Positions 24,066 through 29,837 of a stretch of DNA of 55,410 bases are shown piece after piece (position 1 is the first letter of the stretch; each line of letters opens with the position of its first letter). The stretch lies in IMG/VR virus record IMGVR_UViG_3300031578_000045, positions 1 through 55,410 of that record; one strand, 5' to 3'. The position numbers and the translations under genes are program-made. Source of the stretch: a virus (lineage: Duplodnaviria > Caudoviricetes). The notes under the pieces are model-generated. The model saw only the letters and a program-made list of their open reading frames with translations. It was not told where the DNA came from and searched no databases.

Positions 24066-26009
24066 ATGAAAAAGACACTCACAATATTAAGCTTGGTTTT
24101 AATAGCATTAAACGGATATAGCCAGAGGCCTTTGAGGGGAACCTCTTTAAATGTCACCGAATATATTAAACTCGGTGATTCAACTGTGACGTTTATGTAT
24201 GGCGATACGCTACCGAATAAGTTTTATGTAGATTCATTATCTAGTGCCGGAAGTTTTAACCGTGACAGTATTGCTGCTTATAATACAGATAGCCTTATAA
24301 TGAGCCAAAGCGATACTATTAATTATGCAGATACGGCACTTGCTATATCAGCCGGTGCAATAATAGGGGCACCAGGTGGCCCCGGTGATGTAATAATTAA
24401 CGCTGGGGGTTTTTTAGGAAATAGCGATAGTTTAATTGCTGGTTCAGAATTTACCTGGGATGGTGATGACTTTTTCTTTGACAACGTAAGCGGTAATACA
24501 TATTTACAAGTAGATTTAGACGATACGCCTTTTTTTAATTACTTTGGGTCAAGTGTTTCCGGAAATGACCATCAAATATATATGCAGCAAGGGGAATTTA
24601 ATCTTTTTTCAGATAATGCAACAAATAGTGATTGGGTATTTGAAGTAGAAGATAGGACAGGGAGCGGCAGGTTATATTATTCGCAAGATGATAATGTGAA
24701 TGAAAATAGGGCTGTTCTTGAAATAAATACAGAAGCAGAGCGTAACTTTGATTTTTATATCCAAGAAGATAATTTGGGCGTAGGCAGTAAAGATTGGTTT
24801 AGTTTAGATACCAATGAATTTACTGTCGGGTTTGATAACGTAGGTATTTTCACTGTTGACGCAAGCGGCGTAAGTTTCGATAATAGTACAGTAGTAAACC
24901 AAACAGTTGAGGACACCTTATTTGTAGGCGATGGAGAAACTAAAATATATCAGCCCGGGGGTTCTAATAAGTCATTTGTTATACAACGGGGGGACCCCTC
25001 AGCCGGGGGTTTAATGATGAGGATGTATAAATATGGCGATTATGCCGACCCTGGCCCCTATGTTAACTTTAGCGGTAAAGATATAACGGGTACTAAAACA
25101 TTCCACAACACACTTAGATATGATGCCCTAAGTTTGGGCATAACAGACGCAGGCAACGATAAAGGATTTAATATTTCGGGCGATAGTTCTTCTATAACTC
25201 ATTTAGTTAATTATCCCACATCGTTATCCAGCTTTACAAGATTGGAGGAAGATACTTTTTCTATTGGCTTTGGGATTACTGCACCCACATACACGCCTAA
25301 TTATATATTTACAGAAGCTTCAGCAATTTTTAGCGCAGGATTATATCCTGACAGTATCGTTTATTCAGATGGAACGGTTCAAAAAAGTTTTGACACCATT
25401 AATATTAATAGTGTAGAATTTGATTCAGTAATAACTAAAAAAATAACCTCACCAAATGATAGTATTATATTTGAGAAAAGACTTGAAGGTGATACTATTA
25501 CCGTAAAAGAACTTTTTGTCACTGGCAGGCTTCACTTTGATATATATGAAGTTTTCCTGTATGAAGACCCTGATTCTACAATTACAACGTCATTAACTAC
25601 AAGCTGGATATTTTTGGGGGATGGTGAGAGTAGTAAATTAACAACTTCATATTTAGAAGGTTTTTCATTTGATGGTGATACCCTTCAATTTGATCAGGAC
25701 GCTAATGATACTAGGGATTCTATAGAATTTAGGATAAATTACGGCGGCCAAAATGCAACAAGTAACGTGAATAAGAGTGTATATAATGGCATTTTCATAA
25801 AGCATACAGGAGGGTCTTATATAGAATACCGACCAACAACTAAGGTATCAAGGACAACAACCTCTAGTATTTATTACCCAGGGCCGACTTGTACCCAAAG
25901 CCCTATATGGTTGCAGGATGGCGATAAGATTCAGGTTAGGGTTAAATGTTCAGCCAGTACCACAACGCTATCCACAAAAAATTTCTCAATATATATTCAC
26001 GAAGAATAA
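24066..26009 (+). CDS. fibre-like protein with signal peptide
   Basis: MKKTLTILSLVLIALNGYS-Q; 17 sequons; C-terminal IWLQDGDKIQV (C1q/BclA-like end). Confidence 0.7.
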   Translation: MKKTLTILSLVLIALNGYSQRPLRGTSLNVTEYIKLGDSTVTFMYGDTLPNKFYVDSLSSAGSFNRDSIAAYNTDSLIMSQSDTINYADTALAISAGAIIGAPGGPGDVIINAGGFLGNSDSLIAGSEFTWDGDDFFFDNVSGNTYLQVDLDDTPFFNYFGSSVSGNDHQIYMQQGEFNLFSDNATNSDWVFEVEDRTGSGRLYYSQDDNVNENRAVLEINTEAERNFDFYIQEDNLGVGSKDWFSLDTNEFTVGFDNVGIFTVDASGVSFDNSTVVNQTVEDTLFVGDGETKIYQPGGSNKSFVIQRGDPSAGGLMMRMYKYGDYADPGPYVNFSGKDITGTKTFHNTLRYDALSLGITDAGNDKGFNISGDSSSITHLVNYPTSLSSFTRLEEDTFSIGFGITAPTYTPNYIFTEASAIFSAGLYPDSIVYSDGTVQKSFDTININSVEFDSVITKKITSPNDSIIFEKRLEGDTITVKELFVTGRLHFDIYEVFLYEDPDSTITTSLTTSWIFLGDGESSKLTTSYLEGFSFDGDTLQFDQDANDTRDSIEFRINYGGQNATSNVNKSVYNGIFIKHTGGSYIEYRPTTKVSRTTTSSIYYPGPTCTQSPIWLQDGDKIQVRVKCSASTTTLSTKNFSIYIHEE

Positions 26010-26033
26010 ATAAATAACTAACTTTATAAAATT

Positions 26034-26414
26034 ATGGCATGTGTATCAATTGACGCGTTTTACCAAGGAGAAGACATTTATTTTGCAATAACGGCAGAAG
26101 ATGCAAAAGGTAGCGCAATAAACATAGATAATTTAAATGATTTGATAGTTTTTATTATATCTAATAACAGAAAAAACATATATGCTAGATATAATAAAGC
26201 TGGGAGCGGCGTATATACTGCATTAAATAGAGAAACTGCTTATAAATATTCCGGCTGGATAGATAGTTCAATAACGAGTACAATGCCTAAAGGGAATGTA
26301 TATATTGAGATAAAACTAGAATCCCCCCAATCTAAATTATCAGATAATGAGCAGGATTCAATAGGAAGTGCATTATTAGTAGAAATAAAAAATTCACTTA
26401 TTAAATCAGCATAA
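26034..26414 (+). CDS. BppU-N-like tail protein
   Basis: YQGED..ITSTMPKGNVYIEI pattern. Confidence 0.5.
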   Translation: MACVSIDAFYQGEDIYFAITAEDAKGSAINIDNLNDLIVFIISNNRKNIYARYNKAGSGVYTALNRETAYKYSGWIDSSITSTMPKGNVYIEIKLESPQSKLSDNEQDSIGSALLVEIKNSLIKSA

Positions 26415-28023: not shown

Positions 28024-28025
28024 CT

Positions 28026-29837
28026 ATGAAAAAACTATCTATTATAATATTGGTTTTTATCTATGTAAATTCTTATTCTCAAGTAAAAAAGGGAGGGTTC
28101 TTTTCAAGAATTGACGATCCGATTATGGCAACTAGAACGGCTAATTTAACGGATGCACTTAATTTGCATGATACAATAGTATCTCAATGTTACAAATATA
28201 ATTTACATCCAACATTTGCAGTAGTATCGGAATATTCACAAGGGGATTATTATGTAAATGAGCCTTATATGAAATTTTTTCCTGAAAAATTAGAGGCACT
28301 CCAAGAGTATTTAGATTCAGGACATTATTTATCAATGCATTCACCGAATCATTCAACTAATTATTATATTTCTCATGTTGATTCGTTGAGTTCAGAAGAT
28401 CAATTATTAATTTCAAGTGGTTATAGTGATTCTGATGGAGTAGATACGATTGTAATAAATGATACAGATTCACAATTAGATTTCTGGTATTGGAAAAGAT
28501 TGCCAGATGATCATTATGGATGGTTCGCCCTTGATAAAATGATTGATAATGATAACCTAGATGATTCGATTTACTATCATAGAACTATACCCCCAAGATC
28601 AGTTTATGTATCAATATATCACGGAGAGGCTGGCTTAATTAAAATAATCAATGAACAGAGACGAAGGTTCACTATGTCTGGATTAGATGAGCCAATTATG
28701 TTCATTCACCCCGGACAAGAAACATATTACAGGGAAGCAGATACATTGACTGAAACAACAGGGTATATACAATCTTATGATGATGATACGGTTTTGTATT
28801 ATGTTCAAGAAATTTATTCATCACAAATTAAACCGATTGCTGATTATGATTCGCTTGTAATTTTTGAAGGGTCTAGTCATATGGTTGATTATGTATCTGG
28901 ATCGAATAGCCCATACACTTTAGTTTTAAATGGATATACAGGCGATGCATCAACTCATGATTGTAAAGTAAAACCAATACGAGCGGGTAATTGGATGTGG
29001 TGGGTTAGTGGGGATGTTATGAATTATGTAGCGGAGAACTTAAATTTACGAATAACGGCAATATATGAAAATGGAAGGCAATATGATTATATTGGCGTCA
29101 CTCCATCGATTACTAATAAAGCTTATTTTAAATATGCCCAACAATGGGGGCAAATTTTAGACGGTAACTATGCATCATCTAATATCGCTTCGATTGCTGA
29201 AGCGACATCGAAAAATTATTTCGTATCAACTAACGATCACAAATATTTATTAGGCGGTTATGAATATATAGATAGTGTGTACAATTTTATAAATAATAAT
29301 TTGAGCTCAATTGTAAAATGTTCGATGTATGATTTGCCAGATTCATTATATAACATATCTTCACCTTACGAAAATATAGTACCCTCATTCGATACTGATA
29401 TTGATGAAAATAATGAACAAGACGGATGGAGTAAGTCAAATGAGGCAGTTTGGACAAAGGGAGGGATTAATATAGAAGGTGATACAACGTATATGACTGT
29501 AGTTCAGTCAACAACTGTTAATTGTTTTCCTTTGTGGGGTGTCGAAAAAGGAAATAATGTTTTATCTGTTTATATATCAAATGATAATGCATCAAGTGTA
29601 CAAATTATTATAACAGAATATAAACACAGATTGGGCACAGATACAGATATTGATGTTGTCGATATAGATACAATTACCATAACAAACTTAACATCAAATT
29701 ATTGCGAGAGATTCAGGAAAGTTCATATATCAGAGCAGACAGATTTTATAAAATTAGATTTCAGGGCTATTGGTGGCAATTATTATGCTATCAAACCGAA
29801 AATTATAAAATATACAGCGGGTAGAAATTATTATTAA
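28026..29837 (+). CDS. signal-peptide protein with polysaccharide-deacetylase (NodB/CE4)-like domain
   Basis: RIDD near the N-terminus and SMHSPNH metal-binding-like motif. Confidence 0.6.
   Translation: MKKLSIIILVFIYVNSYSQVKKGGFFSRIDDPIMATRTANLTDALNLHDTIVSQCYKYNLHPTFAVVSEYSQGDYYVNEPYMKFFPEKLEALQEYLDSGHYLSMHSPNHSTNYYISHVDSLSSEDQLLISSGYSDSDGVDTIVINDTDSQLDFWYWKRLPDDHYGWFALDKMIDNDNLDDSIYYHRTIPPRSVYVSIYHGEAGLIKIINEQRRRFTMSGLDEPIMFIHPGQETYYREADTLTETTGYIQSYDDDTVLYYVQEIYSSQIKPIADYDSLVIFEGSSHMVDYVSGSNSPYTLVLNGYTGDASTHDCKVKPIRAGNWMWWVSGDVMNYVAENLNLRITAIYENGRQYDYIGVTPSITNKAYFKYAQQWGQILDGNYASSNIASIAEATSKNYFVSTNDHKYLLGGYEYIDSVYNFINNNLSSIVKCSMYDLPDSLYNISSPYENIVPSFDTDIDENNEQDGWSKSNEAVWTKGGINIEGDTTYMTVVQSTTVNCFPLWGVEKGNNVLSVYISNDNASSVQIIITEYKHRLGTDTDIDVVDIDTITITNLTSNYCERFRKVHISEQTDFIKLDFRAIGGNYYAIKPKIIKYTAGRNYY

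Follow-up and report, generated by a model that had tools for sequence, protein, structure and literature searches.

Four genes at the end of the late operon of an uncultured phage, and a fifth beside its capsid gene, appear to encode proteins that are exported and O-glycosylated by the host cell. The genome in question is a 55,410-base IMG/VR virus record (the window, meaning this whole stretch; G+C content ~32%, genes essentially all on the plus strand), and its proteins are named here by the start positions of their open reading frames (ORFs): 24066, 26693, 27181 and 28026, which lie in the block 24066-29837, and 11748. Judging from its genes, it is likely to be a siphovirus-type phage with a marine Flavobacteriia host, the host class being likely because the nearest isolated phages of its virion protein 20508 infect Polaribacter and Tenacibaculum (21-26% identity). 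We put the probability that these window proteins are exported and glycosylated by the host at roughly 0.8, since they combine a signal peptide, Gln at position +1 and an excess of the Bacteroidota O-glycosylation sequon that is motif-specific, position-conserved and confined to signal-peptide proteins, and that is repeated in a second phage. The whole chain, in which the exported and glycosylated proteins then become virion parts, is their single most likely fate, at about even odds. Virion membership is favoured by the fibre, lectin and esterase folds, by the place of the genes in the late operon, by the tandem mass spectrometry (MS/MS) labels on analogous proteins and by the fibre-like modular evolution of those analogues.

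All five ORFs begin with a K/R-rich, hydrophobic signal peptide. With a slash placed before the Gln, the N-termini read MKKTLTILSLVLIALNGYS/QRP in 24066, MKKILILIGLLIPLIGFS/QRF in 26693, MKKIIYILLLISVSCFS/QTN in 27181, MKKLSIIILVFIYVNSYS/QVK in 28026 and MKRAIIIMIGLFAILLAVKP/QTS in 11748. In four of the five the Gln is preceded by (Y/F)S, that is, a small residue at -1 and Gln at +1 follow a signal peptide of n-, h- and c-region (n-h-c) layout. Signal peptidase I substrates of Bacteroidota habitually carry Gln at +1, and the five proteins look like Sec/signal peptidase I substrates that keep this habit. The cleavage site and Gln +1 of 11748 are doubtful, because the Gln follows Lys-Pro and the -1 residue would be Pro; its N-terminal segment may be cleaved at an earlier site or act as an anchor. 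The original prediction of a signal peptide followed by Gln in five ORFs thus holds for the N-termini, all of which are as described and four of which are canonical, but not securely for the Gln +1 of 11748.

The signal-peptide calls rest on a home-made heuristic together with conservation among homologues. Applied to all plus-strand ATG ORFs of at least 50 aa, the heuristic looked for an early hydrophobic 9-mer with K or R, and neither D nor E, ahead of it. Only 24066, 26693, 27181, 28026 and 11748 scored as 'signal peptide plus Gln site'; the heuristic also picked one small ORF resembling a lipoprotein and a few short ORFs for membrane proteins. Family scans of the five signal-peptide proteins gave no match to a type IX secretion system (T9SS) C-terminal domain of the Por_Secre_tail or CHU_C types, and no lipobox Cys lies near the cleavage region of 24066, 26693, 28026 or 11748. 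The corresponding region of 27181 reads SVSCFSQ, which is ambiguous for a lipobox.

For the sequon analysis, the motif was taken as D-(S/T)-(A/I/L/M/T/V) and its expectation was obtained from 2000 composition shuffles of each protein (Table 1). Pooled, the five signal-peptide proteins (1846 aa) hold 43 sequons against 10.3 expected, a 4.2-fold excess, whereas the 42 window proteins without signal peptide (10,444 aa) hold 29 against 33.6 (0.86-fold). None of the 2000 shuffles reached the counts of 24066 (standard deviation of the expectation 1.93), 28026 or 26693, the last being the densest at 4.9 sequons per 100 aa; the excess is weaker in 27181 (p 0.029) and 11748 (p 0.044). The two small ORFs lying between exported genes show no excess. 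The earlier counts by hand (17, 8, 4, 11 and 3 in 24066, 26693, 27181, 28026 and 11748) were reproduced exactly, as were those stated for the tail protein 13604, the tape measure, the capsid and 20508 (0, 0, 1 and 6), and the enrichment inferred from them persists over composition-shuffled proteins.

The excess is specific to each position of the motif in the pooled five proteins. Among residues heading X-(S/T)-(A/I/L/M/T/V), only D is enriched, the others standing at 0-1.5-fold, Cys aside (2 counts). At the middle position of D-x-(A/I/L/M/T/V), S and T reach 4.1-fold and 4.3-fold, followed by N at 2.4-fold, and at the third position of D-(S/T)-x the order is L (7.9-fold), I (6.1-fold), V (2.9-fold), T (2.8-fold) and Phe (2.1-fold, 3 counts). 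According to a 2025 review (PMC12871550), Bacteroidota O-glycosylate D-(S/T)-(L/I/V/T/A/S/M), modify only non-cytoplasmic proteins and show by glycoproteomics a third-position preference for L, I, V, T, A, S and M. The order found in the window, L and I above V and T, fits the preference described there, and so does the restriction to non-cytoplasmic proteins. The known substrates are cellular, unlike the proteins considered here, and the word phage does not occur in the review (PMC12871550). The density of sequons in the window proteins, 1.4-4.9 per 100 aa, looks high when taken by itself.

Table 1. Coordinates and sequon content of the features discussed. L003 and L006 belong to contig G001; a slash marks the predicted cleavage site.
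Sequence	Position	Strand	Feature	Sequons observed (expected)
Window	24066-29837	+	Exported block; end of late operon, between baseplate genes and lysis-type membrane proteins	
Window	24066-26009	+	647-aa pre-protein; signal peptide residues 1-19, ending GYS/Q	17 (4.24)
Window	26034-26691	+	Two small ORFs (126 aa, 91 aa) between exported genes, without signal peptide	1 (0.49); 0 (0.73)
Window	26693-27181	+	162-aa pre-protein; signal peptide ending GFS/Q; weak sub-threshold family matches only	8 (1.2)
Window	27181-28023	+	280-aa pre-protein; signal peptide ending CFS/Q; predicted ConA/LamG-like domain	4 (1.21)
Window	28026-29837	+	603-aa pre-protein; signal peptide ending SYS/Q	11 (2.85)
Window	11748-12212	+	154-aa ORF directly after capsid gene; N-terminal hydrophobic segment (signal peptide or anchor)	3 (0.88)
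L003			Signal-peptide fibre	15 (4.0)
L003			Small ORF without signal peptide, after fibre	
L003			611-aa protein, signal peptide ending FGQ	14 (4.28)
L003	13000-13893		SASA-family carbohydrate esterase PF03629 (E 4.9e-12); weaker signal-like N-terminus	0
L003			Lipoprotein-like ORF, membrane proteins and amidase, after esterase	
L006 (contig G001)	2951-3472	-	Small exported lipobox-like protein (LLFAC), right after capsid gene	5 (0.74)
phi10:1 (KC821618)	41847-48878		gp091-094, MS/MS-labelled structural; gp095, pectate lyase (record annotation), unlabelled	
phi18:3 (KC821620)	32891-38583		gp085-087, MS/MS-labelled structural	
phiSM (KC821616)	5907-10438		gp08, MS/MS-labelled structural; gp09, GDSL esterase + CBM_4_9, unlabelled	
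phi19:3	33899-42086		Signal-peptide block	
phi46:3	30343-38945		Signal-peptide block	
Window	5972; 6411		Terminase small subunit; large subunit	
Window	8062; 9429; 10291		Portal; protease-like protein; HK97-type capsid protein; then connector genes	Capsid 1 (2.09)
Window	13604-15460	+	618-aa tail protein, major-tail-protein paralogue with long D/S/T-rich extension, without signal peptide	0 (3.96)
Window	15488		Major tail protein	
Window	16405; 16829/17016		Chaperones: one gene and an overlapping pair	
Window	17707		Tape measure	0 (1.69)
Window	20508		752-aa virion protein, phrog_15220	6 (3.62)
Window	22778; 23601		Two small conserved proteins between 20508 and exported block	
Window	29966-30957	+	Three small membrane proteins after exported block; holin-/spanin-like by hydrophobic pattern only	
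Window	31218-31239	+	Strongest intrinsic-terminator-like hairpin within 11.5-31.4 kb	
Window	33745-34164	+	Peptidase_M15_4 endolysin candidate (E 4.5e-9)	

Homologues carry the same features. When 1.84 billion representatives were scanned in full with HMMER, only 33 relatives of 24066 were obtained; word-based searches gave seven, and three of 28026. By regular expression, 33 of 38 family proteins have a hydrophobic core with a small residue and then Gln after it, and two of the five missed carry the Gln site by eye (one with Pro, one N-terminally truncated), leaving three with a signal peptide and no Gln; an 81-aa fragment (P0030), which contains no sequons, was left out of this count. Sequons exceed expectation in every one of the 38 full-length homologues (z 1.5 to 11), and they recur in the same alignment columns: in the 24066 family, those at residues 503 (32 of 34 rows), 538 (31 of 33) and 551 (27 of 34), all three in the tip domain, 465 (25 of 30) and 47 (22 of 32) are kept, and of the 11 window sites in 28026, 8 recur in three or more of the four sequences aligned. 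The enrichment first seen in the window thus extends across both families, with position-conserved columns.

The most informative relative lies on a 42.9-kb viral contig (L003/G001), the sole long contig with a member of the 24066 family; pattern scans of viral contigs found this family only there, and the 28026 family nowhere. The contig is syntenic with the window from the major tail protein onward (identities: major tail protein 33%, chaperone 47%, 20508 homologue 34%, 22778 homologue 44%, 23601 homologue 28%, fibre tip 54%), and the head modules of the two differ in type. The exported genes of the contig are arranged as in the window (Table 1). Its signal-peptide fibre and 611-aa protein are rich in sequons, while eight of its proteins without signal peptide hold 11 against 11.3 expected. 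Right after the capsid gene of the same contig lies a small exported protein with five sequons, which is not detectably similar to 11748, its positional analogue in the window (E 0.48).

It could be argued that the hydrophobic N-termini do not serve export and are instead assembly or membrane tethers of cytoplasmic proteins, the sequon excess being a structural habit of beta-rich folds. Tailed phages assemble in the cytoplasm in all textbook cases, and the three conserved sequons of the 24066 tip lie at modelled loop-to-strand junctions, where Asp-Ser/Thr caps are common. Nevertheless, we regard this explanation as very unlikely. The n-h-c layout, a small residue at -1 and Gln at +1 are found in 33-35 of 38 proteins, and the excess is seen only with D (neither E nor N) at the first position, S/T at the second and L/I/V/T at the third. 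Moreover, beta-rich virion proteins of the same phage that lack a signal peptide stand at 0 against 3.96 expected (13604) and 6 against 3.62 (20508), and the one homologue of 27181 in an isolated phage, a cyanophage, has neither signal peptide nor excess (1 sequon against 1.15 expected).

The predicted folds resemble those of virion proteins for host recognition. 24066 consists of a signal peptide, a semi-conserved N-terminal motif, a variable middle and a C-terminal tip; its relatives have the signal peptide, the short N-terminal motif and the tip in common, and their middles differ, often consisting of fibre-type repeats. Predicted local distance difference test (pLDDT) scores above 90 are confined to the last 158 residues (~490-647, nt ~25533-26006), which model as a TNF/C1q-like ten-strand jelly roll; outside the tip domain the AlphaFold models are poor (mean pLDDT 53.8 and 56.6). 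The tip matches EDA-A1 (Z 13.3, root-mean-square deviation (rmsd) 2.4 A over 128 aa), the short tail fibre of cyanophage A-1(L) (Z 13.3), BclA (Z 13.1), gp23 of mycobacteriophage TM4 (Z 11.3), the receptor-binding protein of lactococcal phage 1358 (Z 11.2) and PRD1 P5 (Z 10.6), as well as many viral 'C1q domain' fibre proteins. The modelling therefore supports a fibre-type protein with a TNF/C1q-like tip, in line with the fibre proposed earlier. As in 24066, the jelly roll of A-1(L), TM4 gp23, 1358, PRD1 P5 and BclA/ExsFA stands at the C-terminal end of a fibre (Z 10.6-13.3), although sequence identity is only 10-13%. BclA is itself a glycoprotein, and to our knowledge the TNF/C1q-tipped phage proteins lack a signal peptide. 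A predicted complex of 22778, 23601 and residues 20-120 of 24066 scored 0.00 with an uncertain partner fold, which speaks neither for nor against an interaction.

The other members of the block are assigned with less assurance, and no family was found above threshold for 24066, 26693, 28026 or 11748 in Pfam, PHROGs and NCBIfam. 27181 matches phrog_18498 (E 5.6e-9), a large, widespread and almost purely viral family, and its predicted fold is ConA/LamG-like (Atlas 0.97 with viral clusters; template modelling (TM) score 0.78 to a ConA-like cluster), so that a ConA/LamG-like lectin may be taken as a lead only. A protein homologue search returned 27181 alone. Directly after its predicted cleavage site the protein carries three tandem KIVTYNG heptads (27235-27297, residues ~19-39). 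28026 probably, again as a lead only, combines a NodB-type polysaccharide deacetylase domain with a C-terminal beta-sandwich resembling carbohydrate-binding modules (CBM) 4/22. Its ten best named clusters among protein-language-model neighbours (Atlas 0.89) are all Polysacc_deac_1, several with CBM_4_9, and the C-terminal sandwich of its low-confidence model matches CBM4/22 modules. Stretches RIDDP and HSPNHS, which may correspond to the NodB metal motifs (Asp-Asp and His-x-x-x-His), are kept in four of four homologues. No Pfam match, whether to PF01522, DUF2334 or another family, was obtained for 28026 at E values up to 0.1, and no sequence match in the PDB. Likenesses of its model to Cry, iota/CDT and Vip3 toxins were rejected, the whole-chain Foldseek TM scores being 0.10-0.19 with rmsd of 17-40 A and the alignment running through a common beta-sandwich. 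Sub-threshold matches to GLPGLI (E 6e-4; 19.6 bits, where the cut-off is 50) and to LolA-like proteins were dropped as well, and the only match of the small ORF 26034, to CHU_C, is below the cut-off (E 0.042). For 11748, the position after the capsid gene possibly indicates a decoration protein.

TNF-tipped fibres also occur on bacterial surfaces (BclA, ExsFA and Bdellovibrio Bd2734), and the export features are typical of Bacteroidota. The genes might accordingly be host-derived moron cargo that supplies a lysogen with new surface or periplasmic glycoproteins unrelated to virion or lysis. We accord this explanation hardly any probability. A pattern search, which weak relatives could escape, found no relative of 24066 or 28026 among 185,579 species, each represented by one genome; members of the 24066 family are scarce (the 33 relatives mentioned above) and its only long contig is a syntenic phage. 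Furthermore, the genes lie within the late operon in tight translational packing and share its G+C content, and no integrase was found among the 46 larger window proteins covered by the family scans. From 23601 to 29837 genes are spaced by 0-24 nt, with no strong terminator before 31218, and the terminator-like hairpin at 31218-31239 places the exported genes inside the late operon.

Cultured flavobacterial phages offer a comparison. Among the tailed phages of Cellulophaga baltica (eight scanned in full, and the first 50 of 72.5 kb of phi40:1), phi19:3, phi18:3, phi46:3, phi10:1 and phiSM each contain a block of two to five large ORFs side by side, their N-termini reading MK(K/R)-hydrophobic-(S/A/G)Q; such blocks were not found in phiST, phi38:1 and phi14:2, scanned in full, or in the first 50 kb of phi40:1. 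In the three records read (phi10:1, phi18:3 and phiSM), 8 of 10 signal-peptide proteins bear the GenBank note 'structural protein' with experimental MS/MS proteomics. The gene order is that of the window: tail genes, signal-peptide block, exported carbohydrate enzyme, lysis genes. Block proteins from different phage families have in common the signal peptide and 50-120 residues at the start, while their C-termini are swapped, which is the classic tail-fibre pattern and makes these proteins fibre-like. The Cellulophaga blocks thus resemble the window in gene layout, in host class and in signal peptides that end before Q, and lend indirect support, by analogy, to virion membership of the window block. 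They differ in that they are sequon-poor or neutral, as against 4.2-fold enriched, and in that they keep the N-terminus, whereas the 24066 family keeps the C-terminal tip. Since the Cellulophaga sets share modules, they are not independent of each other.

The difference in sequon content may itself be telling. The signal-peptide proteins of phiSM are neutral (0.98-fold), and those of the Cellulophaga siphoviruses lie at 0.19-0.39-fold, against 0.78-1.17-fold in the other ORFs of the same genomes. Sequon content hence departs from neutral only in signal-peptide proteins, and in both directions, the window set being rich and the Cellulophaga siphovirus sets poor. These opposite departures are suggestive of periplasmic exposure in both groups.

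Several observations weigh against the proposed export, glycosylation and incorporation into virions, among them the sequon poverty of the Cellulophaga siphovirus proteins just described. The window phage is known from its genes alone, and 24066 and 28026 have no relative in 50,697 phage records (megablast, tblastn). That the 24066 family conserves its C-terminus and varies its middle is less typical of receptor-binding proteins. The Cellulophaga block proteins show no detectable homology to the window proteins and are thus analogues, and their detection by MS/MS may be owed to secreted protein or vesicles that co-purified with the virions. No large signal-peptide proteins occur in the tail modules of Polaribacter phage Danklef_1 (whole genome) or Tenacibaculum phage JQ (25 of 41 kb), so that the export route is not general. 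No tailed phage is known to us in which Sec export of a virion protein has been proven, and exported non-virion proteins are found beside tail genes: T5 Llp, lambda Lom and Bor, and HK97 gp15.

These last examples suggest a different fate for exported and glycosylated products, namely as late periplasmic egress or exclusion factors that never join the virion, which corresponds to the cell-envelope effectors mentioned in the original prediction. The deacetylase would act on capsule, O-antigen or glycan receptors, removing their acetyl groups, and the lectin and fibre would bind receptors and mask them, so that progeny escape trapping on debris and superinfection is blocked. This is the main competing explanation and a serious one, albeit less likely than virion membership. 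The block always adjoins the lysis cassette (in the window, L003, phi18:3, phiSM and phi10:1) and ends in an exported carbohydrate-active enzyme (28026, the L003 esterase, phiSM gp09 and phi10:1 gp095), and the phiSM and phi10:1 enzymes are precisely the two of ten proteins without an MS/MS label. On the other hand, it is hard to see what a long TNF-tipped fibre would do as a soluble protein of the periplasm, and no T9SS C-terminal domain or lipobox was found that would carry it to the cell surface. Eight of the ten analogous Cellulophaga proteins were found in virion preparations, and ~1850 aa would be much late coding capacity to spend on accessory factors. T5 Llp, lambda Lom/Bor and HK97 gp15 resemble the window proteins as signal-peptide or membrane proteins in or beside the tail cluster, but they are small, single exclusion or serum-resistance proteins; the window encodes four to five, the longest measuring 647 aa, with predicted folds of fibre, lectin and enzyme type.

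If the exported proteins do end in the virion, the following sequence of events may be envisaged. Four Sec pre-proteins would be made from the end of the late operon and a fifth from beside the capsid gene. Signal peptidase I would cleave after (Y/F)S to expose Gln +1, which Bacteroidota cyclise, and the general O-glycosylation system of the host would decorate many D-(S/T)-(L/I/V/T) sites in the periplasm, selection having multiplied such sites about fourfold. The products would form a host-recognition kit composed of the putative trimeric fibre 24066, the ConA/LamG-like lectin 27181, the probable deacetylase with carbohydrate-binding module 28026 and the small beta-rich 26693. Once the holin breaches the inner membrane, they would meet the particles built in the cytoplasm and bind to the tail tip (11748 possibly to the head), yielding a virion with host-made glycans. 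More generally, and with somewhat less than even odds, a lineage of Flavobacteriia tailed phages may build its particle in two compartments, with head and tail made in the cytoplasm and Sec-exported fibres, lectins and receptor-modifying enzymes, bearing N-terminal pyroglutamate and either O-glycosylated (the window lineage) or purged of sequons (Cellulophaga), joined at lysis.

Such a route would differ from what is known of tailed phages, whose assembly is taught as cytoplasmic and whose known virion glycosylation is carried out by phage enzymes in the cytoplasm. Mycobacteriophages, for example, use their own glycosyltransferases to modify capsid and tail-tube proteins there. The likeness to the present proposal lies in tailed-phage virion proteins that carry glycans; the mycobacteriophages rely on phage enzymes, however, whereas the window phage would rely on export and the periplasmic system of its host. 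No phage glycosyltransferase was detected among the 46 window proteins scanned. A literature search that extended to neither the original Cellulophaga paper nor any supplements returned no account of Sec-exported or host-glycosylated tailed-phage fibres in Bacteroidota.

Were the proposal correct, some components of the virion would reach maturity in the periplasm and carry glycan borrowed from the host. Host range would be affected, as would adsorption to marine particles rich in glycans and the way in which the immune system or lectins recognize Bacteroidota phages, those of the gut among them, and host glycans on fibres would help the phage to adsorb or would camouflage it. Annotation of tail-fibre genes would also change, a signal peptide being often taken as a reason not to count a protein among virion components, and sequon content would become an evolutionary read-out of periplasmic passage. 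The culturable C. baltica phages phi10:1, phi18:3 and phiSM, with their MS/MS-detected proteins, make the question directly testable.

A few further features deserve mention. The final gene of the block before the lysis genes encodes a different exported carbohydrate-active enzyme in the window (28026), L003, phiSM and phi10:1, and these enzymes look as if they converge on modifying acetylated or acidic polysaccharide. Two small membrane proteins, 230-595 and 30577-30957, contain two sequons each against 0.12-0.16 expected (p ~0.01 each), possibly in glycosylated periplasmic loops. Family scans found no family for the three small membrane proteins at 29966-30957. Residues 28-212 of 13604 match the L003 major tail protein (E 2.7e-13), and 13604 may be a decorated tail-tube variant or a side fibre. 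Upstream of the tape measure, ORFs 16829-17149 and 17016-17729 overlap and resemble the usual frameshifted pair of tail chaperones, an arrangement also present in L003 (1498-1785 and 1631-2332). A sigma-70 promoter scan was set aside as unsuited to Bacteroidota. An 89-aa ORF at 4368-4637, which precedes the terminase genes in the early/unknown region, begins in the manner of a lipoprotein (ILLSSC, then G). Finally, a replication and recombination module at 41607-43318, 46935-49317 and 52619-53986 encodes a PD-(D/E)XK nuclease (DUF3799), RecT, a DEAD-box helicase, an N6/N4 DNA methylase and a DnaB helicase.

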